A DNA stretch of 64,000 nucleotides from Amoebophrya sp. A120 (GCA_905178155.1 CAJINV010000009.1:2581373-2645372), one strand, 5' to 3'; counted from the stretch's first letter, positions 1 to 64,000 are shown. The notes: generated by a model from the letters alone, not told the origin. Program-made: numbers and translations.

Positions 1-3000
1 TCGTCGATCAGAAATCCGAGAGGGCGGTGTCCCCTCCAGAAAACACCCCTCCTCCCCTAATTCGTCCACGAGAACCGAAGTCCTGGTGTCAGAAAAAGGA
101 GTGAAGGTTGACCTAATGGTATACCAATGTCTGATATAAATCCAGAAAACTGAAAAAATATCCAGAAATCCCAGCCGGGGCTGTAAATGAATGTATGAAC
201 GATGAATATGAACGAGACCGATCTTGCTGACGATGCTTTCACTCGAAATATTTATCCCGTAAACATAAAACTCTGTGTCTGTCATGCAAGAACTGGATGG
301 GGATTGGTTTTTTTCTGTGGATACGTTTCTCCCGGCGCAACCTCGTTCCCGTAGATGGAAAGTTTCGTCCAGTGTCGCAGATCCCGCCAGATTATAGCGC
401 TCTCAAGCGTTACACTCTCAACTGTTACATGAATATGTAATGCAAGTAGAATGGCAAAAGTGAAAGGAAAATGAAAAGGTTGCGCCTTTTGCATTACAGA
501 TTTGGAGCAGATTAAAATGCTATCTAGCGCGTCGAGAACTTGTCACGCGAAGCAGCTTCATCATCATCGTCATCATGTAGTGGACACCCGCTCCCAGCGC
601 CACAGGTCAAGGATCCCCTCCCCGGGGGGTGGGCAATTTTGCATGGCAAATTCATGTAACAGCTGAGAATGTAACGTTTGAAAACCCCATACCGATCGCG
701 TTGTGTTTCGGCGCTTCGAGCAGTTCCGCAGTAGATTCCACAATCGGAGTCGCTAGGTGGATCGGTTCAAAAAGCGCTATATTGATTAACGGCGGTGACG
801 CACACCAGTTGCAATCATGCATGACAGATCTTCTCTGTGTATCAATATCATGCATCCTAGGCTAGACAAATTTGAGCAACATCAAAATTTCCCACGCGCA
901 CTTACTGCATGCCAAAACGACCCGTTATTAACGCTAACACTTTTTGGTTCTATGATAAGGTGGATCATCAAGTCAAAATTCCCGATGTTCTTGTCTTCGT
1001 GCAGAAACTGTAAATATCCTGTGCAAAAGTGTCGCATGATTCGTATAAATGTATTACAAATTTCCCCAGCATGAGAAATAAAATTTGTAATGCGAATTTA
1101 GCTTGAGAACAAGATTTGTAATGCATGTTTGCGATTACTACGAGTACGATACCTTTGCACAGCATAGCAAGGTCCGCGCGACAATGGGGGTGGACGGCGC
1201 TAGCGGCTCCAGGATCGCGAGGACCCCGGGCTGGACATCATTTTTTCCAGCCGCATTTTCATCCTTCGAGGAAAAAATCTTCAGCGTTCGCTTCGTGTCC
1301 CGCGCTATCGCCTCTTCCCAGTCTGTATCAAAGGCAAAAATGTCTGGGTCTGGAAGAATGCACGACTTGTCATGCTGCTTTTCCATGACCCATGGGGTCT
1401 GGAATGCAGGACCTAGCATGACAGATTCTGTGCGATCTCTCTCAAGCCTATCCTGCATGAGAAAGTCCCTCCCGACTTGGTCAAAACTGGACGACTTTTG
1501 GATTTTTGCATGCTTCAGATTTAGCATGACAAGGAAGTTGCAATCTTCCAGACCCAGACATTTTTACATTTGATAGTCTGGTCTTTTTCCCAACACCTCC
1601 ATAATCTGGGGCGTACAGGGGAAGGGAAACACCGTGCCAATGTTTTCGTGGGGTTTTTTTCCGTAGTTTTTCGTATTTTCATTCGAGGAAGCTGAAGATC
1701 GAGACCCAGACGTCGCAGTTGCTGATGTGGTGTCGTAATTGCTATCGCTGGAAGATGCTATCACGATGTCGTGGTTTCCCAAAGACGTTACCACACCGTT
1801 GCACACGACAAACCTACCAGTTTCCTCCAGGATGGTTTTTGTAGAAACCCGCTCTTCGGCTTCGTCATGTTGAGCATCGGATTTCAGCGAATCCTCGCCA
1901 GCACCTTCACCTTGTGGTCGCGTATCAATGTGTTTCGCGAAGAACTCCGTTACATTCGGGAAATGGATCACGGACACTGCGCCGCGGGTTGGAGTGCTGC
2001 TGGCGCCGCTCGTCAGCATCTCGGCCTGTTCGTCGTGTCCTTCGGCGGCCGCGGCTCTGTTGTTCGACTCTAATTTGCGCAGAAACCGAGCCCAGTTCTC
2101 CGTGTTTTTCCCGACAACAAACACCAAATCTTGGTTTTTGGTGGTGTTTTGCCTCATCGTTTCTACTTTCGAGGACGCCGTGCTGGGAGAAGTGTTCTTG
2201 GTGCTACTCGTGAGGGTCGTCCACCAAGAGGAAGAGGACTCAGAGTGATCCACTTCTTGTCGTCCTTCATCTTCCCTTATCCACAGTAAATAATTTCCCG
2301 TACGCGCCGTACTGATGCGGTCCCTGCATGACAAAACGAAAACTCGGCTTCCATACTAGTTCTTTGGCATGGCAAGTGTTCCACAACTTCAAATTGGCGA
2401 ACTTTGTCTTGCATGTTGTACATGTACGGGAAATTTGTATTGCGTATCCCAATCGAGAAGTTGTACTTCCCAATTTTCGTTCCACAAGTCCGCGGAGTAC
2501 TCGGTCGCGTTGAAGATTTCCACAAAGCTGGTAACTATGACCCGCTCAGGCACTACAATCTCAAACATATACAATAGTGTCGCGCATGATCCGCATGAGA
2601 AAAATACCGAGCCTCGCGGCTTACGCAACACAAGTTTCGCGGGATTTGAGTGGGGTCTTATGTAGTTCCGGAACTTGTCATGCGCAATCCTGTTGGAGTA
2701 GTTACGCCAGATGTTGCGCAGTGGCATTTTGCAACACAAATTCACGCCTCTCTTGTTCGTAACGTTTGAGATTGTTCGTAAGTAACAGACCTGAGCACGC
2801 CATAGTAATTCCGTGCTTTTTCTCTTCCTGGATTAACGGCACAATGCCCCCGCTCAGGTGCAATTTCGGCTCGATTTTCGTGAAACTCAGCCCATTATCA
2901 AATACAAAAGTGTCTGGGTCTGGAAAAATGCAAGTTTGTCATGCTTGTCTGGCATGACTCGAGAATCTGTGTTGCATAGGCACGAAGCGGCCCTCTTACC

Positions 3001-6000
3001 TGTCATACAAAAGCGCAGTTTGCCATGCGGAATACGTAAGACATGGACGCCAGAAAATTTGCCATGCGTAGCTGCGAATTGCAGTGCGTCTATCATTCAC
3101 TTTTAGCATTACAAGTTTCCAGACCCAGCCATATTTGCCATCCATACCCATCCAAGTTCGAGTAGACCAAGGGGTGGTAGAAGTGCGTCTTTTCCGCTTG
3201 CCTGGCCACCAGCGAGTAGGTGCTCAGGGCCCGGCATGAAATGCAAAAGCATCGCACTCGTATAAATGCATTACAAATTATTTCCTCAGCATGAGAAATA
3301 AAATTTGTAATGCAGAATTACCTTAACAAATTTTTGTAATGCATGATTGCAATACAAGTTGATAACTTTTGCACAGGATACCCGGGTCGGCACGGACTGT
3401 AGGACGGTTTTCGCCGACAGCGTGTGCTGCTTCGATTTCTTGCGGTTATGAATTGCAAAAGTATCGTACTCGTAGTATTGCAATACAAATTAGCTCAGCA
3501 TGACAAAGGGAATTTGCCATGCGGATTCAGCCTAAGAAAGAGATTTGTCATGCATAAATGCAATTACTACGAGTGCGATACTTTTGCACTGGATAGCGGT
3601 CGGAATCCTGCAACTGCCTCGACTCCATTTTCGCTTCCACGTTGGTATGGAAGTGTCAGGATCGAAATCAACAAAGTTGTAATGCATAAAATGCAAGCCA
3701 CAAAGTGCCTGTCTTGCAGAGTAGGCAAGTGAGGCAGATTGTATAGCCTGTGGAGGGGTAGGAATAACGCTGCTGAAGTAGCATGACAAAAGGCGTCTTC
3801 CTTAGCCAAACAGCATGACAGACTGGATTTAGGTTCTAAGTACCCGAATTTGTCATGCTCCATTTGAAAACTGGGCGCCAACTGGTATCCGTTTTATGCA
3901 TCACAAATTACTTATTTCAACTTTGTCGATTTTGACTCTGACGCTTCCATAATTAGTGTTTTTGGTGTAAAACCCCTCGTAGATCAGTCCGTGTGCGAAA
4001 ATCAGGGGCAAAGAGGACTGGGAGAAGGCGGGCAGGAGCTGGGGAAGCAGTTTCTCCTTCAGTTTCGAGAATTGTTCTTTTGTCGATGATGTCGAATCTT
4101 TTTTGATACTGTTCTTGTTCTTCGACAACATCTCTACTGCTGCTCCACCACCAGCTGTTTTTATCGAACTTTGGTAGAAGTCGAAACCACTGTGGATAAA
4201 CCCCGCGTCAAACAGGATTTTCCGACTGCTCGGGAGCCCTGGATTTATTGCGTTGTCGTGGTCCTTGCTTCCTCCACCATGTTCAACATCTACTCCGGTT
4301 GATGCACGACTCCCACTTGCTGCACTTGCCTCCGCGGAAGCTATGGTCTCCATCAGTTTCTTTTCCACCAAACCAAGCATGCCTTTGCCGGCGTACTTGA
4401 GCTGCCTGAAAAGATTCCCCTTCGTGAAGACGGATATGGAAGTGTCAGGATCGAAATCAACAAAATCGAAATGATTTGTAATGCATAAAATCGATACCAG
4501 TTGGAGCCTCAGTTTCCAAGTAGCGCATGACAAATTTCGGGAGCACCAAAATCCACTTTGTCATGCTGTTTGGGCAAAGAGGACTGCTCCTGTCATGCTA
4601 CTCTGGCAGCACATCGTCTTCCCCGAAACAGGCTTGGAATCTGTCTCATTTGCCTGCGCCCCAACACAGACCTTGCGCGCCCTACATTTTATGCATTACA
4701 AGTTCGATTTTGTCGATTTCGATCATCCTGACACATCCATAATGGAGAGGAGCAGCTTAATTTCCTTCAGTTGATTCTTCTGCAAGATAGACTTTTCCAG
4801 CACGCTGTCCCCAATCCGCAGGCGCGGCTGCAATTCGTCCACCTCCTTCTCCATCTTGGCCAATTCCGTCCACAGCTCCCTGCTGTTCATCAAATCGGTG
4901 AGAAAAACACGCAGGATATTGCAAGGAAAGATCCCCCCTCCCCATATTGAAAAGAGCACGCCCTTCCGAAAATTTGTTATGCAGATTCGTGACCACGCAT
5001 CCTGTCTGTCTTGCCAGAAGGCAAAGCCAGAGAGTCCGCCGCGATATGCAGGCGGTTTGTAATGCTGCAAGGCCTAGAGGGCAGAGTTCTGCCATGCTAG
5101 GCCCCTACACCAAAAGGCCCCCCGTTAGGCTTGCGATCTGCGTGCAGTGCTTTTTTGCAAGACAGATGTGATTTGTGTACACAAATCCCGCATCACAGGA
5201 GATTCCCGCAGTTGTAATATGGGGAGGGGGGTGGATTTTTCATTTTGCTAGAGGAAAACGGACCGCTTCGTCGCGGAAAAATTGGAGCGGTAGCCCTTCA
5301 GCGCAGGGGGGAGCGTTGCAATGGCCTCCTCGCTAGTAGTACTCTCCTCGGCAAGACCTTTATTTTTCATCGCGACGCCGGCGCCGCGGGGAGCAGCAGC
5401 ACTTGCACTTGGTGAAGATGTAGAGTTCTTTATTTCCGACGTTTCAGGAACTACGACTGCTGGCTCCGCGTGCAGAATTTCCAGAATGCTCTGCACGTTG
5501 CGGTTCACCGAGAAGAGGTAAAATGTCCCCCGGAACGCAAGGAATTCCAAAATGGTTTTCAATTGATTTTTATCCTGCGCAAAAGTTGTATCCTGCCCGC
5601 ACTAGTTGTAGTATTCTGCATATACAAATTTCATCTTCAGCTTGATGTTGAGATGAAATGGACTTTGTGATGGTGCGTAATAATATGTACGCGTACGCCG
5701 TCGTGACTGCAATTACTACAAGTAGTACCAAGATATGGCTTTTGCAAAAATGCATAGTTTTTGTCGAAGGGGTCAAAGACCATATGAGCTGTGTTGGTCA
5801 CCGAGGACCGCCCGGTGGAGGTCGCCATTGAAGACGTCGATGCAGAAGAATTTCTACCTTTCTTTTTCTTGTTTCTGTTCTTTCGTCGGCTTCTTTTGCT
5901 CCTGTTTCTCTTCCGTCTACCGCGCTTTTTCGAAGCCACAGCCTCTTCGTCCGAGTCGTCATCCTGGTCATCTGAATATGCATTGCAATCGTAATATCGA

Positions 6001-8710
6001 GTAGTAATCCTAGCAGACATGCATAATATACAAATCGAAATCCTATTCTTAAGGTAAATCAGCCACACAAATTTTCCTTTTCACGCTGAGGAAATTTGTC
6101 ATGCGGTTTACACAACTATCACTAGTGCGATACTTTTGCAATGTATACTGAAGAGTTGTCTTCTTCATCCGAGTCCTTGCGGTCCTCTGCGTGATAGCCT
6201 ATTCTGAGTAAAAACATCCCCGCCCCAGAGTTGTCATGCAAATCTGCATGCCAAGAATGTTTCTCATGCGGAGCCCCATGCGAAGCGTTTCGCCGTCGTG
6301 TTTCGGGCTTCGTGATGCTCGAATCAGCATGGCAATATGCTAAATTTGTGTGATGCTGCTGGAGCTAGCTAAACAGGATTGCACTACGTGGCCAAATTTA
6401 TCATGCGAAACAACCAAAGCTGGCTGATTTGTCTAGCAGATTTCCCATCTTGACTCTGGTGTGGGGATCATGTTTGTACATAGGATATAGCCCCCGTCAT
6501 CCTCATTTACGTGCGACTTTTCCACAGTGGAAAGTTCATCCTGTAGAACAAGCTTCACTGTCGGCGTCAGTTTCATCTTTCCACCATGATCTGCGGGAGA
6601 AGTAGTAGTGGCTTCATGATTTATGGTGCCCTGGTGTGATGTTCTTCTACTACCGGAGTTCGTCAGCTTTTCGAACAAATGTTCGTGATCGAACTGCGCT
6701 GATTTCAACTCCGCGTCTTCCTGTCGTTTCCGGTTCTGCAGCCATTCTCTGGTCCAGTTGTTCTTGGCCATGATCTTTCTCGCGTTGTTCAACTTGTGGA
6801 GCCGGAGCAACACTTTCCGGAGAAACGAGTCATCCGGGGAATTCAGAAACGGGACCGAAATATGCTCCCCGGCGATCCAGACCAAGCTCTTCGAGGTGGG
6901 GGAAGACGTTTGTTCGCGGTGAAACTGCCGCGCCGAGTGGTCGGTTTTGCCGTCCAACGCTTTCCTGCGCGCAAGGACACCGTAATGGGGAATCTTCTGC
7001 ATAAGCTGCTCGACGTCATCAGTGTCCTCGTCGATGCCCATGGTAGAAACAGCCGCAGCATTTTTGCCCTCACCATCAGCATCAGCCCCCACAAACTGGT
7101 CCACCGTGTACTTTTCCAACCCGAGCTATGACATGATTCTCAACCGTTTTTACATTCTCAATTGTTGCACGATTTTCCATGCAGAATCATCATCAGCACA
7201 CACAACCACGATTGAATTGCTTCGCATGACAAATCGTCGAAGGGCCCAGCAGAACGATTGAAGATGATCTGTTCCAAAGTTGTAACGCGAGAGGGGGCGC
7301 AAGCTCCCCCTTTCTTCACTTTTCCTATTCTTGCGTCAACATAAATCCATGTAGCGCCAGCAGTTGAGTGTGTAACGTTTGAGAATCTTCCAACCATACG
7401 AACGTGCCGATCCCTGCCAGAGCGCCGCGGTACTGGGGGAAGTTCGAGGTCATGTTCACGAAGAGCTGCAATCTTTCGAAATCTGACAACGCTTCTTTCC
7501 TCGCCCCCCTCGCGGTTTTTATGTGGTTCACGAACCGGTAAACCAAGGCGGAAAGCTGTCTGTTCGTCAGCAGCACGTCCGCGGACCCCGGCGACACCGG
7601 GCCTGACGCATTGTCTAGCGCGTTGTCGGTGAGAAGTATCCCATAGAAAAAAACAGCCCGCCGGGCATCTTTGTCACGCAAAAACAGATTAACAGAAAAA
7701 TCTGTAGTCATGGGCGAGCCGGTAGCGCGCTGTCGAGGATATGCATGGAAATAGATATTTGAATATCATTTATTTTTACGCATACAAATATACCCGGCCT
7801 GGTGACTTTCTCCGTTGGATAGCAAGTTTATCGTACTCGGAAGATTTGGGCCGGAGTTCGACGGAGTAACCAGCAACCGGCTCGGAGAGAAGAAGGTCAT
7901 TAACGTCCTGGCCCTCGTTAATATGCTGTGTCTCATAATTATCCCCGTTCTTGCTGCCCGTCGCGCTGCTGGTGGTTGTGGTCCCCGCTCCTGTTCGTGT
8001 TCTTGCACTACCAGTCGAAGCATTCGACCGTCTGCCCACAGCTGGCTCCTTCCGTTTGATGGTCAGGTCGTCGAACAAGCGGTGCGCGCGGGCTAGCGGC
8101 TCAAAGTGCTTCTCAAAAGTAGAAACCGCGAGCTCAGGATCTTCCGACGTTTTTCTGTTTCTTGTTGTAGTGCTGGAGGCACTAGTATAATTTTTCGTGT
8201 AGTCTTGTTGTGCGAGTTGTAGTGGTTGCAGCGGCTGCAGCACCTGCTCGTGGTCCCCTTGGTGCATACTACTGCTCCTCGTTCTATCTGCTGCAAGAAA
8301 CCGGCTTTTTACACTCACAGCCACGTCGATTGCGGCCACAGGGAAGAAAAGTTCGGCGAGGCACAGAAAGTAGAGGAGTTATGCATTGCAAAAGTATCAT
8401 ACTAGTATAAAATGCATGACAAATTTGCTCACCAACAAAAATGCAATTTGTAATGCTGTTTTCCCTTAGAAAGTAGATCTGTCATGCATGACTGCAATTA
8501 GTACGAGTACGATACTTTTGCACTTGATAGGAGTTTCTTCAGGACAATGTTGTTCTTGTTGTGGCCTTTGAGGTGCTGGCTCCGGCGCCAGAACCACGTT
8601 GAACAACTTTGGTTTGGGAGATTTGGAGGAGGGGCCAAGAACGACCGTGGTGGCCCTCGTTCTCTTCCTGCTGGTTCATCTGCCGCAAGAACAACTCGAG
8701 GCATTCGCAT
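1..8710 (-). CDS. Large multi-exon hypothetical protein with an N-terminal hydrophobic anchor (gene 1); 3' end uncertain
   Basis: ORF fragments join in frame when each TIR element plus one 5-bp DR is removed, e.g. ..KKLL|YFLCLAELFFPVAAIDV.. and ..VARTL|QFLHEDKNIGNFDLMIHL|ATPIVESTAELLEAPKHNAI|WRDLRHW.. About 18 introns; no recognisable domain. Confidence 0.7.
253..323. mobile_element. Short degenerate introner, family J
   Basis: TATCCCGTAAA...TTTTCTGTGGATA; the end resembles the family J TIR at 11425; DR unclear. Confidence 0.5.
393..691. mobile_element. Introner family C
   Basis: TIR TATAGCGCTCTCAAGCGTTACA / TGTAACGTTTGAAAACCCCATA; DR CAGAT/CCGAT. Confidence 0.85.
760..957. mobile_element. 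Introner family G (degenerate left end)
   Basis: DR AGGTG on both sides; removal restores the frame (MIHL|ATPI). Confidence 0.65.
1015..1166. mobile_element. Introner family A
   Basis: TIR TATCCTGTGCAAAAG / CCTTTGCACAGCATA; imperfect DR. Confidence 0.85.
1326..1575. mobile_element. Introner family B
   Basis: TIR TATCAAAGGCAAAAATGTCTGGGTCTGGAAG; perfect DR GTCTG. Confidence 0.9.
2278..2446. mobile_element. Introner family E
   Basis: TATCCACAGTAAATAATTTCCCGTAC / GTACGGGAAATTTG; DR TCCCT/TCCCA. Confidence 0.8.
2667..2804. mobile_element. Truncated family C-like introner
   Basis: Only one TIR end is intact (..GCACGCCATA); DR GTAGT/GTAAT; removal gives KARNY|IRPH. Confidence 0.55.
2896..3146. 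mobile_element. Introner family B
   Basis: Family TIR; perfect DR CCCAT. Confidence 0.9.
3235..3380. mobile_element. Introner family A
   Basis: Family TIR; perfect DR CCCGG. Confidence 0.9.
3447..3595. mobile_element. Introner family A
   Basis: Family TIR; perfect DR GCGGT. Confidence 0.9.
3646..3951. mobile_element. Introner family D
   Basis: TIR TATGGAAGTGTCAGGATCGAAATCAACAAAG; DR GTTGG/ATTAG. Confidence 0.85.
4435..4741. mobile_element. Introner family D (opposite orientation)
   Basis: Family TIR; DR ACGGA/ATGGA. Confidence 0.85.
4917..5250. mobile_element. Introner family K (single copy)
   Basis: TIR core CCCCCCTCCCCATATT / AATATGGGGAGGGGGG; DR CAGGA/GAGGA; removal gives RSVFL|RVFLTD. 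Confidence 0.75.
5571..5756. mobile_element. Introner family A (diverged)
   Basis: TATCCTGCGCAAAAG...TTTTGCAAAAATGCATA; DR ATTTT/GTTTT. Confidence 0.75.
5977..6147. mobile_element. Introner family A (diverged)
   Basis: Perfect DR CTGAA. Confidence 0.8.
6200..6487. mobile_element. Introner family F
   Basis: TATTCTGAGTAAAAACATCCCC...TAGGATA; perfect DR TAGCC. Confidence 0.85.
7127..7398. mobile_element. Introner family C
   Basis: Family TIR; DR CGAGC/CGAAC. Confidence 0.8.
7730..7793 (-). other. Canonical GT-AG intron (64 nt)
   Basis: GTATAT...GACAG joins ORF 7776-8339 in frame to ORF 7325-7711. Confidence 0.65.
8380..8529. mobile_element. Introner family A
   Basis: Perfect DR GGAGT. Confidence 0.9.
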
Positions 8711-43090: not shown

Positions 43091-43133
43091 TCGTGCACAG
43101 GTGTCGAACAATTCTTCTTTTTCAGCGTGTTAC

Positions 43134-51240: not shown

Positions 51241-51519
51241 GGCTTTGTGCTCTGGGTTCTTGTACGGTTGCGCCAATGTTGTGCCGGCTTGCGCAACGTG
51301 TGTGCGAGAAAATCTTTCTGTCTGCTGTTCTTGTTTCTCTCTGGTTGGTTGCAACGTAAGTAAAAGTGCTTAGTGCTTGCCGGTGTAAAAGCTCCTCTTC
51401 CTTCATTCCCCCTCTTCGTTCTCGCTCTCGTGGCGCTAAGTAGTACAACTACAACTGCAGGACGAAATGAAACTCCACGACAACGCTTCATCGGGTGGAA
51501 CAGAACGCGACGCCTGCAC

Positions 51520-54090
51520 ACATTAGGCAGGAGGGGGCGGAGCGGAAGCTAGCGCGCAGCGCTCTCGGTAGAGACAACTGACGTAGCACTTACTAGCGGT
51601 GGCAGCTCCTCTCTCTTTCATCTGAATCTGCTGAAAGATGGACGCGGGCCAAGCGCTGGACCTTTGGCAAAGACACACCCCCGGAGCCCAAGCCAAGCGA
51701 CAGACTCCGGGCTCATCAACGGGATCGGGCCCAAGTGGGCTCGGAAATAAAAAAATCATGAATCCCAAAAGAAAAACGAAAAAAAAAAAATTTCTGCACT
51801 GCCGCCCTATTGTGCCAAACCACTCCGCCGGGGCTCGCTCGATGGGAAATCTGCAGGCCCTAAAATAGCGCCGGGGCTCTGCCAGCAAGCTGCGGACCGG
51901 TGGGCTCCGGGGTTTTCCAAGAACTTCGACGCATGAAATCGAGCACGCAACATTTGTTCGGGCGCACACAATTTCGGCGAAAAAACAGAAAAACACCGAA
52001 TAAATTTGCGCCAAAAAAAATTTTTTGCGCGACACGAGTGCGACACGGGTGCGACACGGGTGCGACAGCCGTGCGACATTTTTCGGCTTCTTACTGAAAT
52101 CCCCAAGAAAAATCACAACACCGCCGAAAGTCGATTTTTTTTAATTATTTCAGATTTTTTGTCGCAACAAAGTCGATTTTTTGTCGCAAAATCAATTGCC
52201 CACTCGCCCACCCAAAACTTGCCCACCCGAAACCCCTATCCCATCCCGAAACACACACCGACAATATGGGCTCCCTCTGCCGGCCCCACTTCAATCCCTT
52301 GCGCCCGCGCCTGCTTTTCTCGCCCAACCCACAAACCCAAGACACACAACCAGAAAAAGAAAACACGCCAGCGAGCGGCTGCAAGAACTGAAAAAACCGC
52401 GAGAAAATTTAAAAGCGCGAAAATTTTCCGGCTTTTGTGATTTTTTTGCTTTTCTGACTACTGGGGCCCGATCCCGTTGAGGCTCACGGTGGCGGCCGGC
52501 CGGCGGGCCTGAAAGTGGCAGCAACTGGGCAACAGGAATCACAGAAGGAACGAGACGGCGGCGGCGCAGCTCATGCATAGGGTGAGCGCGCGCCTGCGCC
52601 CCGCGCGCGCCCGGTGGTGTCGCCTGCGGGTACACGAAAAAATGCGCAGGCACACGGCCAGGCCGGGCCTGTGCTTCTTTCTCTGGCAGGCTCACCGACC
52701 TGGAGCATGCCGAGAGGCAGGTGGATCGATGGCACACAGGGGGGGCGGCAGGGCGGGCGGCGGACGGGCGCCCCGGGGGCGGGGCACGCGAACCAGCAAG
52801 CGCGCCCAAATCAAAGCAGGCCGGCGCGCGCACAGAAGCGGCCCGAGGCCGCCCGCCATCTAACTAGCGCGGCCCCACCGGCGAGGTTGATAGCGCGGGG
52901 GCCGGCGGCGACAAGAATGGGCCACCCCCCTCTTCGGAGGGCGTGGCAGAGGATCGGGGGCCGGCGGCATCGCTTGAAATTAATGCGGTCGCCGCTCGGC
53001 TTCGCGGGCCCGCCGAGGTCGCGTCTACGGTTTCAACGAACCTCGAGCGACTCCGGCGCCGCGCCCTCCTCCACCTGAGAAAAACTCCCTGTCCGATTGC
53101 TGTGCGGCAGCCGCCCCACCGGGGCGGGCGCTGCGCCGGCTGGGCCGGCGGGCGGTTTGACTGCCAACCCAAGCAAGGACGCAGGCAACTGGCCCGCCCG
53201 GGCGGGCGGCAATGGCCGCGGCGCCATGCTCCACACGGGGGGGCCAGCGCGCTGCCGGCGCCCACAGAAAATAGCGCCCGGCGCCACCGAAGCCCGCGGG
53301 CAGCCCAACGAACTAGGGCCGCACCCAGGGCGCGCTGGCTGTTCGTTGGCCTCGGCCCGCTATCGCTCGGACTACCACCATGCCGGCGCGCCACGCGGGA
53401 CCCCAAAACCACGCGCCACACCCTGTCCGCCTGCTTGGATCGTCCTCGAACTAGTTCCGCCCTGAGAATCGGGGCGCCATTGCCTTCGAACATTCTCAAG
53501 ATTTCTTCACTGTCGAGCGAATTCCCCGACTGTTTTGCCAGCGATTTAAATTTTTTCGATGCCTGCGCGCTCGCTGCCGCGCGGCCACGGCGCGCGCCCG
53601 CCGGGCGATCGGCACGGCGGCGCCCGGGTCCGTCTACTTGCTTGGGCGGCCAGCTCGGCGGGGGGTCCCCTCCCTGCGATGCATCTATCGGCCGGGGTCG
53701 CGGGCCCCGGCGCTTTCCTGCCCTCCTGCTACACCTCGCACAGCGCCCCCGCCCGGTGCTCCCGCCGGCCCGGCCCGGGCCGGCGCGTCCCAACACTCTC
53801 GCGCCCGTCGGGCCTGTAGGTCGGGCATACTTTCTGCCGCTTCTTCGACGCTGGCAGCGCTTGCGTTGCCTGGCGGCGCGCCGAGTCCAGCGACTACGCC
53901 GCCCGGCACCTGCGCCGCTCGGAACCTGCACTGTTTCGGCGAAACTGTGGAAAAACAACAGCCAGCGGCTTGCTCAGATGCGCGCCCCAATGAGGGCCAT
54001 GCAAGTGGCTCCACACGACATAAACGCGTGGCTTTTCTGACTCCAACGAACACAAATTCCAGCAACATCTGGCGCGAGAAGCAGAATTAG
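51520..54090. other. GC-rich intergenic block with A/T tracts
   Basis: Very high GC/CpG, low-complexity ORFs on all frames, interspersed poly-A/T tracts. Confidence 0.7.
52028..52079 (+). repeat. Tandem 11-bp repeat GTGCGACACGG, about 5 copies
   Basis: gcgacacgagt gcgacacgggt gcgacacgggt gcgacagccgt gcgaca. Confidence 0.9.
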
Positions 54091-54844
54091 GGTTCAAGGC
54101 TGGCCAGATGGATAAACAATGCCAACTGCAAAGCTGTTGCAGTTGTACAGTCGGTTTCTACAACTCTTTGCGTTTGCAAAAGCAAAAGCATAAACCTCTC
54201 AAAACAAGCAACGTTCAGGCGAATACTCTTCATCAACTGATGTCTTTCAGCTTTCACTTCTGGTTTTCAAAGAATCTTGTCTAGGTCTTCTTGTTCTTGC
54301 GCACTCACTGCACAAAAAAGAGAGCTTGAGCTTTGACCCGAAAGGGCCTACGCACAAAAACCGCAAGAAACCTTGAATGCAGGCATTTTTTCTATTGCTA
54401 CTTCCTAGAAGTTCTGTCTTCATCCGCTCACCTTCAGATAAAATCGAGAAAAACGCTTCTTGAATCTGAAAGTCTACACGTATAAATGGTATGTCCACCT
54501 CTAGTCCTCTACTGTGTCTTTGTCATACAATACCACAATCGATGCATTTTTCCCCTAGTGTCGCTATTAAGACGCGTTGTATATCATCATCATACATGGA
54601 TGGGCTGCTGCTGCACGTTAACCTTCATTGCAAAAGCTTCGCTTATAATCGGTTCAAAAAAATAAAAAACGATTTATTTCCCCACTGACGTCCCCACTGA
54701 CAAATCGATGTTTTACGTCTTTAATTACCTCAGCCTCACTAACATCTCAGGTTGAAAACTAAAGTGCATGCTCGAGCTCGACCAGCAAGGTGCAGCTGCG
54801 CCCGATATTTATAACAATCACAAATGACTTGATCGGCTATCCAT

Positions 54845-57313
54845 CTATTCCCGCACTGGCTCTTGCGCCTGTAGTTGTTCCCAATCTACATCCTGCTCAC
54901 CACCGTCCGTCTGTTTTTCCAAACGTAGCGCCTCCCTCTTCGCCCGCTTTCTTTCTCGCTGCAATGCCCTCTTCTTCTGGCGGGCGGGACTTGGCACGTG
55001 GAATGGGCCGCCACTGTGTTGTTGATCATGCCCATGTACTGCTCCAGCGGTAGCATCTCTTTCCCGCGCGGATGATGTAGTGTTGCTGTCAGCTCCTGAC
55101 GACGCAGAATTCGTTGCGCTCCGTCCAACATCATGATCGCGACCTTCGGCTCCAACAACATCGAAATCCTGAGAAGTCGGAGTCCCTTGCTCGTCAAACA
55201 GTAGCTCCTCCGCACTTGCAGTAGAGACTAGTGCCTCTGCTGCAGTTGATGCTGACGAAAAGGAGCCTGCAGACCCAGACGACGTAGTAGAGATTCTTCG
55301 GATCATCGTTTGGCTCTCGGTTTGCCTGTGCGTGCTTGCGCTCGCTTCACATTCGGGAGGAGTCCTTTGCGCGTCATCTTCCTTGCTGCTGTTTCTAGTG
55401 CGAGACCTCCACGCGAAGTCGTTGCGTGGTTTGTCGCGTTTAATACTACTTGTTCTCTTTGATGACAACCTCGACGGCAAGACTACACCGGAGGAAGTAC
55501 TAGAAGCCGGACTAGTTGTGCCACGTTGCTTTGTGATATTTACATTTTCGTTTGCGGCAGCGGGGCGACCCATGTAAGCATGTGTTTCTAGTTCCTGACC
55601 TTGCGCCATCACCCACCGATTTTCGAATGATTGCGGCCACCAGAGGCGCCCTCCATCGGTTGTGTGGTCTAGTGCTGTTGTTTCACTAGGAACTACCGCC
55701 CAATCTCCCGGCGCCGCCGCGCAGGACATCATATCGGCGGACTCGCAGTAAAACACCATCGGCACGGCGGTGGCCATCCCAAGATTTGCTGGATCCCCGA
55801 CGCAGATATAGGGTGTCGAAGATGATGAACAAAGGGCTGCGAAGTGATGCTGATGCATTTCAGATGCAACTTGATTTGCATCTTGCTGCCACTGATGACT
55901 ACGGTAGGGAAAACTGTCCCCACTACCCCGGTTTTCCCCAAAGACAATTTTTTTTTTTCGATCCAATTGTAAGCAGGGCGGGCCCTTCGCAAGCGACCTG
56001 CGCCGCGAATGGCCAGACCGAAGCCCGCTCCCCCAGGTGTGTTGCTGGACTCAAAGACACTGCACGCCTTGCCCGGCTTTTTGGGGCGCAAGCAGCTCGG
56101 GGCCCGCGAGGCAGCGCCCTGGGCAAGGCGCCCATGCCAGACCCGCCCCCCGGCCACCTAAGGCTGAACGCAATGCCCCTTGCCGCGGACCTGTCTTCTC
56201 CGCTTGAGGCTGGCCGGCACCGTTTCCCTGAGTGCATGTTCGGACACGCTGGCGAGAAAAAAAACGTATGCTGGGGATTTCGGCCCTAAGCAGCTATCTA
56301 CGCACTTTCGGCCACCAAAACGAGCACCAGAAACCTCCCGAAAAGGTACGCATGCACGACCCCCAGGGAAACGGTGAGGCCGGAGCCTCAGAAGTTGGGC
56401 GCGGCCAGTGTGGCGGGGCCGCGTTGCAGTAGCCCACGCGCGGATGGGGCCGAAGTAGCTACACACATCCACAAAGCTTGCTGCCCCGTCAGCTCATGCG
56501 CCGACTTTTGCGCGCCGCTATCCCGCTTGCTCCATTGCATACGTAACAGCCTCAGAAAGTATCCGTGAAGAAGATCCACTAGCGGACACTATCCGGGCGG
56601 GCTGCGCGGCCGGTGGCCGTGTTGTTGCATCAGTTCATAAAAAAATTTTTGATTTGGGGAAAACCGGGGTAGTGGGGACAGTTTTCTCTAACGTAATGAC
56701 CATGAAAATTCTCTCCTGTAACTGGCGCCGACGTGGTCGCTGGGTCGTGTGTGCTGTAGTTGTTGTGCCAGCAATACGCATTCGGATTCGCCCAATTGTC
56801 GTCGCTCAACATCCACCCGATGTGTTGTTGACCACTTCTTTGGCCATCGTCAGTCCTCGGCGATGTTGTTGCATCATCCGGCGCACTAAGCCCTCCAGCA
56901 GCCGGCTCATCGTCCTGCTCATCCTCCGAGACGAAGTCTGCCCAGCGACTTGTTCTCGTCGCCCCGTGTGAAGCTGCGCCGGTAGGCGATGAATGTTCTT
57001 GCACCGTGCCGACATCTGCCGACACGAGCTCTTCGGCTGCACCATCAGGCTCTTGTGCGGCGTGATCCTGGTCTGTGGTGAGAACCGGATGAAAAGAATC
57101 CGCGGAAATATCTTCTGTCGTTGACGTTCTTAATCGTATGCCAGCACAGATGCTGACGCTGCTTATCAGACAAGCGAAGGAAAAAATCTCCCTGCAGTGC
57201 TGCATTCTGGATGATAGGCTCCTGATGGTACTAGTTGTAGACCCCGGGCGTGTAGTTCTTGCTGTTGTCCTTGTCATGGTGTCTCGGCGTGATGAAACAG
57301 GATTATACTTCAT
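54845..57313 (-). CDS. Two-exon hypothetical protein with a hydrophobic N-terminal segment (gene 8)
   Basis: ORFs 56630-57367 and 54845-55966 join in frame (GENFHGH|QWQQDAN) on removal of the 796-bp element plus ATGAC. Confidence 0.7.
55900..56695. mobile_element. 796-bp TIR element / long introner with a GC-rich interior
   Basis: 43-bp TIR TACG(G/T)TAG(G/A)GAAAACTGTCCCCACTACCCCGGTTTTCCCCAAA with 2 mismatches; perfect DR ATGAC. Confidence 0.9.
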
Positions 57314-58376
57314 GTCTGATGAAGTTGAAGAAGATGATGAGCCACTTGTTGACAACATCACAAACACAAACTCCGTTCAAAAGTAAATTAATTAAATTTT
57401 TATTTCACCATCATCTGATGCATATGCAAGTCCTCGTTGAGGAAAGAAAACCAAAAGCACAACTAAGCCTTAGCGGAAATGTCATCGAAAAACAAGAGCG
57501 AGAAGTCCAAGAGCCTATCATTATGCCTGTCGTGATGTCGGAGTGTTCAGTTGGCAAACACGTTTAATAATAGCACTTCATCATCGAACCCCGCGAACAA
57601 GTCAAAGTAGAGCTTTTTCAGTTTTTGATCGAATGTAACAAACACAGCAAACAAGTTACAGTTAGTATGTAAGTACTTATTCTCCATTGTATCTCCGTCG
57701 AGTATGACTAGAAGCACTTCTCCGGCTTGTACTAGAAGATCTTCTTCATCGCTTGATCATCACAAAGGTAGAGCCTGCACATTGCGGCGTGCATGGACGA
57801 TCCACCACCACCAGAAAAACCACATCACAACTTCTACTTCTACTTGTGAAGATCGCCGAAACAACATCAGAACAAGGCCAGGAGCGCGATCGCTTTTCAT
57901 ATTCTCCTTCTATCCAGCCGCCGCCGTATTACAACTTCTTCTATCCGGCCGCCGTATTACGCTTTGTAGTTACGCAGTATCAGTAACACTCGGCTTCGTG
58001 GCAGTTTCGTTCTTTCAAGGATATTAGTGAGACGCCACTCGCAGGATTCTTCTCAATTAGAAAGGATAAGGAATCAAGCTACGTTCTTGTGGCCATAAAC
58101 TACTTCCATGATGATCAAGATCAACAGGGAGCAGCGTCGCTTTCATGTCCGACGAGATGTCTTCAAAACACAGCATAGGTACGGTGTCGTGCGCTGTTGC
58201 TTTCTGTCGAAGAGCGAATTTGTTACGCATAGGTTGCTCTTGCGATGTCGAAGATAATATTTCTTTTTCTATCCGTAGAGCTAGAAAGTGGAGATAACTA
58301 TTGAGTTTGATGAATTGAAGTTCTAGAATCATAAGCATGACGATTGTAAAGAGGTCGAGCACTTGTTTCATAATAA

Positions 58377-61300
58377 TCAGGCTTCTTCAGGCGGCAGGCG
58401 CAGTGCCGAAAGTGGATCGTAAAACTTTTCTTGCGCGGCCCGAGGAACCACACCAGGTATCAACACCTTACCATCGTGCTGCTCTTCTTCATTTACAATG
58501 GGCGGCAGTGCAGGACCTGCCGGTGACCACAACTCCTGCTGCTGCGCATAATCTACTTGCTCCCCACCGGCCAGCGCGACGCAGGCCCCATGATCATCCG
58601 CCAACATCTTCATTCTGCTTTCGTTGTAACACCGGTCGAGAACTTTCTTGAATTCCAAAAACATCGCGTCCATTCTTGCCTCGTATGTCGCGGCCAGCGA
58701 GTCCGGCAGTTTTTTCGTCGGTCTTCGGCCGCAGTACTTCGATTCATTCCAGTAAACGTGCGTGGCGGTGACCGTGACAAAAAACAACCCGCTCTGCGGC
58801 TTATGCATTGCAAACTTATCGTACCTAGCATGCGATTGCATCACAAATTTTTTCATCACAATTTTATCAAGGAAGAAAATGCAATTTGTAATGCGAATTC
58901 AAATTGCATTTCCATTTGTCATGTATAACTGCAATTTCTATTGCAGATACGATACTTTTTCTTTTGCGATGCATACGGCTCCATAAACACCCACCCCGGC
59001 ATGTCCGGGTCGCCTTTCTCCAGAATTGGGGCCTTATTGGGGCCGATAAGCAGGTTGTTGCTACTCGAGTGATGTGTTGCGCTTGCACCAACACCAGCTG
59101 CGGGAGAATTATTCGGGGATAAGTCCCCGGTTTTGGACCGGTCATCATAGAAGGAGCCTCTAGCTGCAGTTGCGCTGTGCTGATGTTCCCGGGTGCGTCC
59201 TCGAGAATTATAGATGCCGGAAGTGATTTGCTGCTTGGAATTGCTCGTGGCAGAGCGGAAGGGCACAAGCAAATCCGGCGTTTGCTGCGGTATAGCTGAG
59301 TGGTACAACTTTTGGTCCAAAAGCTGTTCTTCGCTGTTTGTCTGAAGATTCTGTAACAACCCCGCTGTGGTCGCACCAATGGTGCTGCTGTTCGCTGAAG
59401 AGGTGTTGCCGCCAATCGTATTAAGTAGCGGGGGAAACAATCCATCGTGGTCGAGCTGCTGGATGTTTGCGTTCGTCCGCGTGTTATGAATTGCAAAAAT
59501 GTCTGGATCAGCAAAGTTAGAGCTTGTAATGCTGGTCTTACATTCCTGTGAGATCTGTATTGCATGACCAACAACAGTCGCAGCCTCTCTCGTCACACAA
59601 AAACGCAGTTTCTCATGCGGAGTGCGTATGAGGAAGCGTTCTGCAAACTTGTCATGCTCTCCTCCATGAGGGACCGTTTTCGTCATGAACATTTTACCAT
59701 CACAAATTTCCAGACCCAAACATATTTGCAATGGATACGTGTCTAGATTCAGTGACATCACCGTGCTGTCATTCGGGGTAACGACTTCCTTGGAGTTCGA
59801 TCCAGAAGCACTGACATTACCGGTGGAGTACTGGTCCTGCAAATCTTGCTCGAGAAGTTGGGCTGGGAGTTGTAAGGCATTATTTTGTGCTGACACTGAC
59901 TCGTCGTCCGGACGCGAGATGATTGGATCGTCCTCGACCCCTCTCCCGACGCTAGCAGGAGGACCAGCAACTGGAGCCGCAGAAGGTCCTCCAGAATCTA
60001 CCAATCCAGGTTCTTGTGCGGGAGGCGTAGAAGTCGTGTTTATCAAATCCACACCCTGAACAATTATCCCTCCGTCTGTCAAATGCTGGTTTTGCCGAAT
60101 GGCCTCAAACACTGGTGTGGCTTGCGTCCCTCTTGGTGCTGGGGTGGTAAGCTGTCGCAGGTCCAATCCACCGAGCATGGGCACGGCGTTGTCGAAGTCA
60201 AAGAGGTTATCTTGTTCTCGTGCAGGAGATGTAGTTGATCGGCCAGCAGTTTCTGTTTCTCCCCCGGAAGCTACAAGAGGAACATCAGGGGCTCCAGCAG
60301 ATCCAGCTACACCAGCCTGCGCGACAACCGTCTCCCGTCCCCTCGCGCCGATCATATCAACACCGCCATATTGGTTTGTATCCGTGTCGATTACTTCCAA
60401 AGTTTCTCTTGCTGTCACAAGGTCGTCCTGCTGGTCGTTGATGTTGAGATCTACTCGCTCTCCGTATGATACAGGTTGTACCACCGAGGATGTCCCTCGC
60501 AGCACACCAGCGACACCAGTAATGCTGGTCGTCGGGAGACCGCTTCGAGACCTACTTTGCGATAGCAGGTCGCCACCCGTCTTCGAAGAAGTAGCAGATG
60601 GCAACAAGGCTGCCTTTGCAGATTTTCCGCTCCCGCTCTTAGAAGAACTACTTGTCGCCCCATAGTTGTAAATCAACAGTAGATTCAGTGGTGGCGACAA
60701 CAACATTTCCACTAGCGCTGCGTACCCGATCCTCTCCGGATATGGGGTTCTCAAACGTTTACACTCTCAGCTATTACATGATTTGTCATGCAAAACTGCC
60801 ATAAGCAGCCGCACCATCAAGGTGTTCTCGAATGACAAATTCTCCAATGGCTAAACAGCACGGTACTACGTTCTAGATTTGCAATGCAAAACGCGCAATA
60901 TTCCCGCTTTCGCTTTTGCTGTTTTAGCATCACAAATCCATGTAACAGTTGAGAATTATTTAACATTTGAGAACGCCATACCGGAATCCGCATCCCCAAC
61001 CTGTGGAAAAAGGGCGGTCTTTTGTAAACCAAATCTTCCACCTGCTTCTGCATGTAGTTCCGCAACAAATAGAACGAGGATTTCGAGGTGAAGAGGAATT
61101 GCATCACTTCCATATTCGCTAACTCCTGTTCGTGCTCGTCCCTTTGCTGTTTCAGTTTTATCAGTTCTAAATGTTCCTCCGTTCCGTATTTCAGCTTGTT
61201 CAGCTGCTTGAAAAACTTCTCCGCACACCGCTGGCTCGGCTGCTATGGCGTTCTCAACTGTTACATGGTTTGCCATGCAAATTTACCACCAAGATCGCAA

Positions 61301-64000
61301 CAATTAAGCTGCTTCGCATGACAAATATCCGAAGGGCTAAGCAGCATCTAAATCTGTGGCAAATCTGTAATGCAAAATGCGCGATCTTTCCCCTTTCACT
61401 GTCGCCATCTTGCATTGCAAATTCATCTTCATGTAGCAGCTGAGAGTGTGACAGTTGAGAACGCCATAGCTGCGGGAAAACTTGGGAGTGCGGGACGGTT
61501 TGGAGGAGGAAGCCGTTTTCTGATATGGATGTGTCAGGATCGAAATCGTCAAAGTCTACATAATTTGTAATGCATAAAATGCATGACGCGAGGCGCGTGC
61601 ATTGCAGAGCAGGCAAGTGAGGCCGATTGTAAGCCTGCTTGGGGCTAGAGCTCGAGCTGCTAAAGTAGCATGAGAAAATCAGTCTTCTTTGCCTAAGCAG
61701 CATGACAAACTGGATTTAGGGACCGCCAAAATTTGTCATACGCCATTTGGAAACTGGGTTCCAACTGGCATCCATCTATATGCATGACAAACTAGTATTT
61801 CAACTTTGACGATTTCGATCCTGACACTCTCATATCTGAGGCGGAGTTGACCAAAAACAGCGTGAATTTCGCTGCGCAGATGTTGCTGCAGAGGATCCAT
61901 TCTAGGGACAAGTGAAATGGATTGTCCGGGTGGTAGTGGGAGTCGAGCTGCAGTTGGATCCACTCGTTTGTAGTAGACGCTGGCTGTTTATGCATTGCAA
62001 ATATGTGTGGGTCTGGAAGCATGCGAACTTGTGATGCGCATTTCACACCACAGATAAATCTCTCATGCATAGGCAGCAAAAGGCGCCCGCTTCCTGTCAC
62101 CAAAATGGGGGATTTGTCATACGGATTAAGCAGTGCGGAAGCTTCTCGAAATCTGTGATGCTAGGGCTTCCATGACAGACATTTTGTGTCATGCAAAAAC
62201 AGCATGACAAAAATCTGCACTCTTCCAGACCCAGACACTTTTGCATTTAATACTGTTTTCGTGGGACTGGTCGGGTTGATGCTGGAACACCGTTGTTCGC
62301 CGCGCTTGCCGCAGCAAAAGCACCACGCTGATGCGTAGTTCCAGTCGCCGCACCACCGGGAACATATCGACCGGAGGCGGCGCCACCAGTGCTCGAATGT
62401 AAAGACGCCGTGGGGGAAGTTTGCCCCTGAAGATTTGGGTCTCCAACACCCCCAGCTGCACGATGTTGATCCCTAGAAGTTGTTGTAGTTGTCCCTTGAG
62501 GATGACCTCCTCCCTTTGCAGCAGTAGAACTCACCTGGATATTGTGCCACGTTCGCATCCACCGAACCGGAATCTTCGCAGTCTGTCTTGTAATCTTCGA
62601 AGATTTCGTACTGTAGCCGATTCTGTATATCGTTTGTGGTTTGCCCTTCTCAAATTCTTCCTCCTCCTCATCGCTCCTCAGCACGGTCGTGCTGCCAATC
62701 GTGCCTTCCGTGCCCGTCGTCGCTGACCGGAGACGGTTCTCGGTTAGGGGAGGGTGGGTCGGAGGAACTATTGTTCCAGAAGATCGTACACCTCCTGCGG
62801 CGGACGAGTCTTGCTTGTGCTGTTCCTGGTGATCGAAAGCTTCATCATCTTCCGCAGTAAAATGAAAAATCGCTTCATCCTCATCATACACCTTCGGCAC
62901 AGAAATCGGCAACGAATACCGACTTTCCTCTTCCCTCAAAGCCGGATTCGACGCGGCGAGGATTGACGGTTTCTTCTTCGTATGCAGTGCAAAAGTATCG
63001 CGCTCGTACTACTTAACTGCACTAATGCATTAGATATTCCGCATCGCAAATCTAATCTGTAACGCTGAGCCAAGTTGCATTGCACGTTTATACTAGTACG
63101 ATACTTTTGCAATTCATACTTCGGCGCATTTGCGTACAAATAGTGCTCGACTTGCTTCTTCCACGAATCAAACTTCCGGATCAACCGCTTCCTCCTTTTG
63201 TACTCTTGAACGGCCGCGGGAATCGACTTCGTCTGGGGGTAGTTGCTGTGGAGAGAGTAGGCGTCGTCGACGAGTTTAGTAGAATTTTGATGCGTCTTGA
63301 TGTTCTGGTGGCCTTCTTGCTCTTGAAATTTATTGGTATTTTTACCACCCCCGTCAGCTCCACCTGATGTTGTTGACACAGACGCTGCGAACGGCCACTC
63401 CCCCACGGTTAACTTCTTTTTCACTTTTCGCTGCTCCAGCTTGTCTTTTTCGTTTATCGGGACAAGGACAAAAACAATCGACCGGAGCACCGAGCGGAGT
63501 CGATACCAGGGAAAATTCTGCTCGGTGGCTTTCTTACTGGCAAGGGACAAGCTGGAGGCAACAGCACGCGACGTAGCACCCTCTCCAAGTAGGTCGCCGT
63601 CACTGCCGACGAAATTCTTTTCATACAAAAACGCCGGCGTCGCTGCTGGCATATGGGGTTCTCAAACGTTCCATTCTCAACTGTTGCATGAATTTGTCAT
63701 GCAAAAATACCATTATCATCCACAAGACCAAGCCGCCTCGCATGACAAATTTGCGAAGGGCTACTAGGCAGCACCTAAATCTGTTCGGGATTTGTGATGC
63801 TACAGGCGCAACCTTCCCCCTTTCACTTTTGCCATTCTTGCATCACAAATCCATGTAATCGGTGAGAATGTAACAGTTGAGAACGCCATATGGCAAAGGG
63901 TGTGCTTGGGACACGATTTGGTCCACTGTGTTCCACGGGATGACGTCCGGTTGGCAGAAAGTCAAATGCAAATGTGTCTGGGTCTGGAAAGTTGGAACTT
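58377..64000 (-). CDS. Probable DEPDC5/IML1-like (GATOR1) protein, C-terminal part; 5' end outside the window (gene 9)
   Basis: Spliced EWIQLQLDSHYHPDNPFHLSLEWILCSNICAAKFTLFLVNSASE|NGFLLQTVP and GWVFMEP|QSGLFFVTV..HVYWN resemble the DEPDC5/Iml1 C-terminal domain (from memory). Confidence 0.55.
58802..58975. mobile_element. Introner family A
   Basis: Perfect DR CGGCT. Confidence 0.85.
59485..59737. mobile_element. Introner family B (in frame, stop-free)
   Basis: Perfect DR CGTGT. Confidence 0.85.
60741..60980. mobile_element. Introner family C
   Basis: Perfect DR CCGGA. Confidence 0.9.
61244..61468. mobile_element. Introner family C
   Basis: Perfect DR GCTGC. Confidence 0.9.
61524..61834. 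mobile_element. Introner family D
   Basis: Perfect DR TCTGA. Confidence 0.9.
61989..62252. mobile_element. Introner family B
   Basis: Perfect DR CTGTT. Confidence 0.9.
62981..63118. mobile_element. Introner family A
   Basis: Perfect DR CTTCG. Confidence 0.9.
63652..63890. mobile_element. Introner family C
   Basis: Perfect DR TGGCA. Confidence 0.9.
63961..64000. mobile_element. Introner family B, left end only (cut by the window edge)
   Basis: TCAAATGCAAATGTGTCTGGGTCTGGAA. Confidence 0.75.

Follow-up and report, generated by a model that had tools for sequence, protein, structure and literature searches.

Introner elements of Amoebophrya sp. A120 and a likely fixed register for their removal from transcripts

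The window analyzed in this study, a stretch of 64,000 nucleotides (CAJINV010000009.1:2581373-2645372), belongs to the genome of Amoebophrya sp. A120, since a protein spliced from it is identical to P0001, so named by NCBI. The exons of its genes are invaded by elements with TAT…ATA inverted repeats that lie between 5-bp direct repeats, a class which is already known as the A120 introner elements published in 2021. All long spliced open reading frames (ORFs) spanning such elements lie on the minus strand, forming a unidirectional gene cluster. In transcripts, each tested element is missing together with exactly five further nucleotides, and the cut likely lies at one fixed position within the direct repeat.

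Elements and genes in the window

A first scan for TAT…ATA termini with a 5-bp direct repeat, requiring a perfect repeat and a good inverted repeat, returned 38 pairs in the window compared with 0-2 in 20 randomised windows. A looser scan for TAT…ATA plus a 5-bp repeat gave 64 non-overlapping candidates, as opposed to 0, 0, 1, 2, and 1 raw matches in five order-3 Markov copies. For the catalogue, three doubtful candidates (2728, 15613, and 44736) were taken out, 22 elements were added by eye, and two of the latter (253-323 and 18409-18657) were removed again, having no repeat. The resulting 81 elements cover 19,636 bp (31% of the window) with lengths of 120-1402 bp (median 239). Together with approximately 10 further decayed copies flagged by an internal motif, this bears out the first-pass annotation, which had counted about 85 elements. 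Its left coordinate of 253 has to be corrected, as this is a decayed element without a good repeat and the first catalogued element starts at 393. Comparable element-like stretches with inverted ends and no good direct repeat are 47875-47991, 22367-22480, and 770-957 besides 253-323 and 18409-18657.

The termini read TAT…ATA in nearly all elements and TAT-N7-AAA at one or both ends in 60 of the 81, matching the earlier description (often TAT-N7-AAAA); three have a TGT end. Identity between the two repeat copies is high at positions 1-5 (68-77 of 81) and low just outside (14-25 of 81), which sets the repeat length to five. The repeats are perfect in 46 of the 81 elements and comprise 78 different 5-mers, including the formerly listed GTCTG, CCCAT, GCGGT, and TAGCC. 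BLAST clustering at 60% coverage yielded eight multi-copy families (26, 10, 8, 6, 4, 3, 2, and 2) and 20 singletons, so that the earlier figure of at least 12 families holds only if singletons are counted. Family members occur in both orientations (106 vs 105). Being short and non-coding, with terminal inverted repeats (TIRs), a target duplication of fixed length, and many copies, the elements have the properties of miniature inverted-repeat transposable elements (MITEs), i.e., non-autonomous TIR transposons.

Removal of element plus 5 nt opens minus-strand ORFs of 1399, 1245, 674, 660, 603, and 595 aa spanning 3-16 elements, the largest of them 16. Removal of +2 or +8 yields long ORFs likewise. 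Reading frames alone therefore do not fix the five, which is set by the RNA joints, and the proposal that excision restores the frames stands for the ORFs as such, the frames being equally open at +2 and +8. Two proteins had been put forward as examples. For the FSIY/FGW motif interrupted at 39526-39734, the spliced protein equals the public A120 protein P0001 over 584/584 residues, and the motif is found in TspO-like homologues. For the C2 domain at 50874, the part downstream matches Pfam C2 positions 54-94 with E=0.0012, below the curated cut-off, and the part upstream gave no match.

Removal from transcripts and position of the cut

Four contig sets (X1-X4) were aligned to 32850-37700 at 99% likeness. 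The GT-AG intron 34943-35194 is missing from these contigs, based on which we regard them as spliced RNA and place the gene on the minus strand. The interval shows 14 joints, each in four of four runs, consisting of this one GT-AG intron (minus strand) and 13 joints over 14 elements, and every element skip equals element plus five. Of the 14 element borders, 12 were exact in the catalogue beforehand, one was two bases off, and one right end (33334) was set after the joint. Including five more two-sided junctions from an earlier alignment on 20300-40200, the predicted gap of element length plus five was found exactly at 18/18 scripted transcript junctions, and both element orientations are spliced from RNA. 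A DNA run (X5), in contrast, provided gap-free contigs across eight intact elements.

No register gives GT-AG ends in any of the 81 elements, as had been anticipated, which sets them apart from the canonical U2 class; in a second assembly, GT-AG appears at register 1 in 6 of 235 elements, about chance. An unused YAG is located within 10 nt upstream of the 3′ cut in 10 of 19 RNA-supported elements, e.g., an in-frame TAG 3 nt upstream in 33026-33334 and a pyrimidine tract plus CAG acceptor 8 nt upstream in 35298-35453. The use of nearby GT-AG sites and the retention of elements in mRNA, both named at the outset as observations that would speak against the proposed removal, were not what the contigs show, apart from some elements retained at low depth. 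Micro-exons occur between neighboring elements, one of 18 nt being RNA-supported (32147-32164) and one of 13 nt predicted (21444-21456). Raw-read runs under the same species label (X9 and X10) matched only element ends joined to unrelated sequence (37263-37376 and 25724-25755), with no junctions; judging by this joining to unrelated sequence, the same families seem to be present at different sites in a related strain.

The position of the cut was described by a register k, which counts the repeat bases contributed by the left copy (plus-strand view), with mismatched repeats showing which base the mRNA kept. Bounds were scripted for 18 junctions and, for 28083 and 33706, derived manually. A register of k≥1 is required by six elements (28083, 31530, 33431, 34674, 35298, and 36462) and k≤1 by six others (25603, 30887, 32169, 33706, 34247, and 35682). 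The sole value fitting all informative junctions is k=1, with a probability of 7e-5 under a uniform random register. We thus consider one fixed register likely, in which the intron is N·TAT…ATA·NNNN with one repeat nucleotide at its 5′ end and four at its 3′ end; the upstream exon would accordingly retain four repeat bases and the downstream exon begin with the fifth. At repeat positions 2-4, the base retained at informative mismatches comes from the copy on the same side in 8/8 cases, with elements lying both ways, so that the asymmetry of the cut follows transcription and not the element. Two elements with only 2/5 repeat bases alike (31530 and 34247) are still cut at element plus five, which argues that repeat identity is not the guide. 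The published motifs agree with register 1: in Table S4 of Farhat et al., the nine commonest non-canonical motifs of A120 are all NT-NN, and the nine of A25 all TT-NN (PMC7789003).

Elements in minus-strand genes are given as strand (-); on the mRNA, each intron is taken to begin at element end +1 and to finish at element start −4:

25603-25749 (-), element, repeats TAGTG/TGGTG; joint 25597 to 25750, skip 152 = 147+5; right copy kept at position 2; register ≤1
28083-28346 (-), element, CTTGC/TTTGC; left copy kept at position 1; register ≥1; one junction side only, read by hand, piece ends 28078
30887-31147 (-), element, ATGGC/AAGGC; joint 30881 to 31148, skip 266; register ≤1; intact in DNA contig (X5 piece 29472-31687)
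31530-32145 (-), 616-bp element, repeats 2/5 alike (TGGAT/AGAAG); register 1-2
32169-32411 (-), element, TCGTC/TTTTC; follows the 18-nt micro-exon; register ≤1
33026-33334 (-), element, skip 314 = 309+5; right end set after RNA joint seen
33431-33701 (-), inner element A, in 3′ tail of element B; removed alone in one contig
33706-33935 (-), outer element B, joint 33424 to 33936; combined A+B skip 511 = (271+5)+(230+5)
33987-34194 (-), element, skip 213
34247-34525 (-), element, repeats 2/5 alike (ATGCG/ACATG); skip 284 = 279+5; register ≤1
34674-34833 (-), element, GGCCA/TGCCA; skip 165; register ≥1
34943-35194 (-), canonical GT-AG intron in the same transcript as tested elements; joint 34942 to 35195; internal control
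35298-35453 (-), element, TCGCA/GCGCA; skip 161; register ≥1
35682-35825 (-), element, orientation opposite to 35298; AAAAG/AGAAG; skip 149; register ≤1
35884-36049 (-), element, +4 variant (TAC); skip 171
36218-36390 (-), element, sole +3 variant among 316, ends AG; skip 178
36462-36745 (-), element, TTGGG/CTGGA; skip 289; register 1-4
36832-36985 (-), element, skip 159
37036-37188 (-), element, sole +2 variant among 316, intron starts GC; skip 158
37263-37572 (-), element, skip 315
38613-40982 (-), P0001 gene, TspO-like, 584 aa, three elements inside; spliced ORF equals the public A120 protein
39526-39734 (-), element in the FSIY/FGW motif, skip 214; at register 1 the cut falls within the Tyr codon

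In the nested pair, element A lies within the 4-nt tail at the 3′ end of element B, and taking out A and then B, each at k=1, reproduces the mRNA (worked out by hand). In one X4 contig of depth 3, 33426 is joined to 33703 and B is still present, which fits an ordered intermediate in which A leaves before B; an allele without A would look identical.

Conserved bases and candidate machinery

The pattern scan was extended to 153 loci (L001-L153, 403 kb) from one other assembly, which harbor the same families and do not overlap with the unique sequence of the window. The same caller recovered 71 of the 81 window elements without extras and 356 distinct elements in the second assembly, of which 354 had enough flank and 235 were strand-called by a codon model trained on the window. 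Given the inferred register, U at +2 and a purine at +3 are each found in 315 of 316 elements; A−7 is likewise present in 315 of 316 and more conserved than its pairing partner. Within the 235 strand-called elements, deviations numbered 0, 0, and 1 at +2, +3, and −7 compared with 9, 4, and 3 at the partners −5, −6, and +4 (p=2.7e-4, an optimistic value, as the window (for A−7) and the second set itself both contributed to the choice of the groups). This asymmetry was stable at stricter strand thresholds, and the window elements gave 1, 1, and 0 vs 1, 3, and 5 at the same positions. At +3/−6 and +4/−7, 17/17 substitutions break pairing, 15 of them striking the partner base and sparing A+3 or A−7. 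A signal residing purely in DNA or in pairing should conserve both ends equally, which is not what the asymmetry indicates. Positions +1, −1, and −2 have no preference.

Three exceptions coincide with canonical features, namely a GC start, an AG end, and a GT with an in-frame AG (L056:1598-1850), an anecdotal observation. The last of these (minus strand), the sole strand-called element without A−7, combines its GT start with a newly arisen YAG, in frame and three bases upstream of the usual 3′ cut, and may have switched to canonical splicing.

Folding of the elements is strong (median z −4.6; 56 of 79 below −3). Pairing of TAT with ATA is predicted in 50-53 of 79, about two thirds, terminal pairing is predicted at ≤0.12 in eight RNA-verified elements, and inverted-repeat position 4 is paired in only 147 of 316. 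The first-pass annotation had postulated a machinery that recognizes the paired termini and removes element plus 5 nt. The length was exact throughout, the role of pairing is doubtful as the ends are asymmetric with respect to transcription, and the removal itself is better described as 1 nt on the 5′ and 4 nt on the 3′ side than as symmetric.

The active site of a spliceosome reads U at +2, a purine at +3, and a single invariant A close to the 3′ end; spliceosomes normally also contact G+1 and the 3′ AG. Judged from these sequence patterns, the elements are probably removed (we assign a probability of roughly 0.6) by a major spliceosome whose demands on the first and last intron bases are relaxed; the donor would be supplied by the element itself, and A−7, the putative branch point, would fix the 3′ cut. 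Each terminus would read N-U-A-U-G/C on RNA in either orientation and thereby resemble a 5′ splice site with a free first base, and the opposite terminus would supply A−7 as branch adenosine, with a U-tract upstream of it. The 3′ cut would be placed a fixed 6 nt after A−7, as in introns with a fused branch point and 3′ site, one repeat's worth of sequence would leave, restoring the frame, and the hairpin would help to bring the ends together without defining the cut. The more specific formulation, slightly favored over its negation, is that the A120 spliceosome dropped G+1 and the terminal AG; it would depend solely on U+2/A+3 and on a branch A at position −7 and set the 3′ cut by a ruler. We prefer the relaxed major spliceosome because of the conserved U+2/A+3/A−7, the precedents in Giardia and Fritillaria, the small nuclear RNAs (snRNAs) retained in A120, and GTAT…AG introns containing the internal motif. 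Indeed, U2, U4, U5, and U6 snRNAs and 83 of 89 spliceosomal proteins are reported for A120 (PMC7789003).

Several points weigh against this reading. Taken individually, every element leaves more than one register open, the narrowest range being 1-2, and a mixture of 0, 1, and 2 is conceivable. The RNA contigs derive from one sample of one study, all RNA-tested genes of the window lie on one strand, and low-depth contigs keep some elements (X1, depth 6.5 vs 186 and 19.5 vs 32.5). Strands in the second set are codon-model calls, with 119 of 354 elements uncalled. Of the ten changes at −5, seven leave a U·G pair in place, and pairing alone can therefore explain the +2/−5 asymmetry. There is no preference for G+1 or a 3′ AG, even among diverged repeats, which counts against spliceosomal removal given the contacts named above; nor is G at +5 enriched on the 5′ side (158 G, 148 C), and the bases upstream of A−7 are unlike the usual U2-pairing sequence. 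Finally, the U1 snRNA is reported as not found in A120 (PMC7789003).

The free end bases, the missing U1, and the strong folding would equally suit a spliceosome-independent nuclease-ligase, or a second divergent ribonucleoprotein, that recognizes the stem at the element ends and cleaves 1 nt ahead of it and 4 nt behind it. Euglenid nonconventional introns, for which such a route has been outlined, keep a constant offset from their inverted repeat and are released as circles by a mechanism not yet known (PMC11282704), and the nested pair, in which A has to be out before B, suits any ruler mechanism. We regard such an enzyme as a doubtful though serious candidate, as the conservation is asymmetric on U+2, A+3, and one 3′ A and runs against pairing at two of three positions, eight RNA-verified elements have hardly any predicted terminal pairing, and decayed elements appear to become GTAT…AG introns, suggesting one machine for both. 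A minor-spliceosome comparison with U12 introns, which have an extended donor of ATATCCTT/GTATCCTT type and a U12 branch box, showed some ends with ATATCC or GTATCC and G at +5 in about half; minor snRNAs are reported absent in A120 (PMC7789003). A tRNA-type bulge-helix-bulge was rejected by reasoning, as the repeats cannot pair with each other.

That the length is exact and the cut varies within the repeat by element, the single register being a small-sample effect, seems quite unlikely. The bounds on the register at position 1 or 2 come from only 12 elements, none of which fixes it alone, a figure legend of Farhat et al. calls the sites variable (PMC7789003), and the automated calls in Dataset S7 of Gozashti et al. 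2025 differ among families (20 A120 rows; PMC12130899). On the other side stand the agreement of all informative junctions on 1 (p≈7e-5) and the uniform NT-NN of the top motifs in Table S4; the published borders presumably stem from aligners unable to place a cut inside a perfect repeat. Excision from DNA before transcription (ciliate-like internally eliminated sequences or a transposase), or joined forms that are alleles with empty sites, is very improbable. An empty site equals the spliced junction in sequence, the single contig without A could be an allele, and the X5 joints inspected are 15 of approximately 1850. The gap-free X5 contigs and the assembly itself hold the elements, though, register and conservation follow the direction of transcription, and the GT-AG intron is missing from the RNA contigs as well. 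The least probable explanation of all is template switching of the reverse transcriptase across hairpins between direct repeats: all RNA evidence is cDNA, and a hairpin with a short direct repeat is the classic setting for such artefacts, yet reading frames require the removal, the joined contigs are the dominant form, and elements with 2/5-alike repeats (31530 and 34247) or weak folding are still cut at element plus five.

Comparison with known systems supports the identification as Amoebophrya inverted-repeat/direct-repeat introners proposed initially: organism (P0001), TAT-N7-AAA, 5-nt repeats, families, and non-GT-AG removal all correspond. Farhat et al. 2021 described A120 introners with TAT-N7-AAA inverted repeats, direct repeats of 3-5 nt, a size of ~240 nt, RNA-supported removal, and 29,850 copies; their text finds no clear end signature and terms the border 'variable' or says it 'remains unknown' (PMC7789003). 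Organism and structure are thus shared; a constant register, an asymmetry of U+2/A+3/A−7, nested elements, and a common internal motif were not found in the text examined (PMC7789003). Gozashti et al. 2025 listed 58 A120 families, mostly of TIR DNA type and mostly with non-canonical ends, the large ones having GT at ~26-28% of 5′ ends (PMC12130899). Their automated duplications range from 2 to 5 with inconsistent 'carry/co-opt' calls and no common register among 22 of 58 A120 rows, and their family 38 has integrase-like ORFs, whereas nothing coding was found in the elements here (PMC12130899).

Beyond Amoebophrya, the TIR introns of Fritillaria borealis are likewise MITE-derived, non-GT-AG, and genome-wide, and theirs need the U2 spliceosome (bioRxiv 2025.08.15.670264; PMC13326754; PMC11282704); they differ by preferred AG-AC and AG-AT ends and an intact U1, as opposed to the free first base and last four bases and the U1 not found in A120. 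Introns of Giardia, Trichomonas, and Spironucleus share a fixed short distance from branch A to 3′ end and, in Giardia, the donor VTATGTT with a free first base and TAT at +2 to +4, but terminate with AG, possess a conserved branch motif, occur in small numbers, and do not stem from transposons (PMC6679479). Nonconventional introns of euglenids resemble the elements in inverted repeats at a fixed offset, repeat-like flanks, and the lack of GT-AG, but have an offset of 3/5 with CAG/CTG (+4..6/−8..6) and form circles, compared with 1/4 and TAT/ATA here (PMC11282704). Stwintrons parallel 33431 inside 33706 in that an inner intron interrupts an outer signal and must leave first; they are canonical U2 introns without target-site duplications (PMC8469720). 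The literature searched yielded no statement of a register or branch point for Amoebophrya, nor of the asymmetry at three bases, the order of removal in the nested pair, or the motif common to the families; published logos or alignment figures may already show part of the rule.

Origin of the elements and consequences for A120 genes

An internal 8-mer, TGT[ACG]ATGC or its complement, is contained in 74 of the 81 window elements, with 9.6 per kb inside vs 0.34 outside (~28-fold), and in 399 of 410 element calls of L001-L153 (overlapping loci counted twice). It occurs in several copies per element and is common to otherwise unrelated families. Its strand symmetry (398 vs 377) makes a transposase site more likely than a signal for splicing; as a branch site it was rejected, given this symmetry and its varied distances of ≥40 nt from the 3′ end. 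The motif is also useful for finding decayed elements. Two canonical introns starting with GTAT (32797-32944 and 27028-27184) contain it and are likely decayed elements turned GT-AG, which suggests a passage of decayed elements into GT-AG introns.

The elements are non-coding and likely transposon-derived, and their insertion was likely carried out by an integrase-type DDE transposase, in view of the 5-bp duplication and TGT-like ends. Ginger2/TDD transposons share the 5-bp duplication (TDD-4 and TDD-5) and have TGT-type ends one base from TAT; their ends read TGTNR vs the TAT consensus here, and with no transposase found they serve as a lead only (PMC2836005). A search of 46 window ORFs gave no Pfam match to a transposase or integrase, four ORFs examined in the interior of 18952-20353 had no Pfam match, and no integrase-type partner was seen in the window or the 403 kb of loci, the long elements being without an ORF >159 aa. 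Such long elements of 753-1402 bp with ordinary ends and non-coding interiors are 18952-20353 in the window and L023:4524-5338, L042:1355-2502, and L069:1561-2313 in the second set; part of the L042 interior recurs at 87% in L004, pointing to a second repeat nested inside. The TAT…ATA element pattern was absent from the viral contigs scanned.

Stretches of 7-8 kb without a catalogued element are 11545-18408 (AT-richer, no long ORF), 39735-46547, and 51037-58801, and the region 52000-54000 has 65% GC and low-complexity ORFs on both strands. Apart from a GAS2 match at 45505-46080, these element-free stretches had no Pfam or Rfam identity, and an Rfam search of the window gave no match. The remaining features are the following:

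18952-20353 (-), 1402-bp element, ends of the commonest family, interior non-coding
27028-27184 (-), probable canonical intron GTAT…AG containing the internal motif; length calculated from the contigs
32797-32944 (-), canonical intron GTAT…AG, A at −7, the elements' internal motif; loose RNA-contig end
50874-51036 (-), element in the weakly supported C2 domain; sequence and Pfam only
Catalogued elements without a single entry, within 393-63890 (-):
393-691, 1015-1166, 1326-1575, 2278-2446, 2536-2804, 2896-3146, 3235-3380, 3447-3595, 3646-3951, 4435-4741 (-)
4917-5250, 5571-5756, 5977-6147, 6200-6487, 7127-7398, 7637-7821, 8380-8529, 10146-10416, 10454-10716, 11112-11381, 11425-11544 (-)
18773-18914, 20405-20719, 20966-21150, 21195-21442, 21461-21770, 21801-21951, 21986-22280, 22678-22907, 23200-23515, 23547-23826 (-)
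24102-24275, 24346-24640, 24709-24996, 26245-26498, 26742-26886, 27316-27476, 28437-28697, 28800-29006, 29237-29496, 38699-38850, 38905-39146 (-)
46548-46718, 46891-47173, 47216-47370, 48195-48344, 48544-48693, 48752-48988, 49042-49192, 49459-49719, 50027-50239 (-)
58802-58975, 59485-59737, 60741-60980, 61244-61468, 61524-61834, 61989-62252, 62981-63118, 63652-63890 (-)

For the removal of two thirds of the A120 introns, the rule derived here gives single-base predictions. With an intron defined as N·UAU…AUA·NNNN and U+2, A+3, and A−7 constrained, it also provides a simple way to annotate the borders of A120 genes. If the spliceosome is indeed responsible, G+1 and the 3′ AG, usually deemed structural needs of its active site, would be dispensable in a living eukaryote, and the end of a transposon would suffice as a splice signal in both directions. 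Every transposon with TAT…ATA ends and a 5-bp duplication would then be a perfect intron in either orientation and at any exonic site, which would explain the invasion of this genome by ~30,000 elements.

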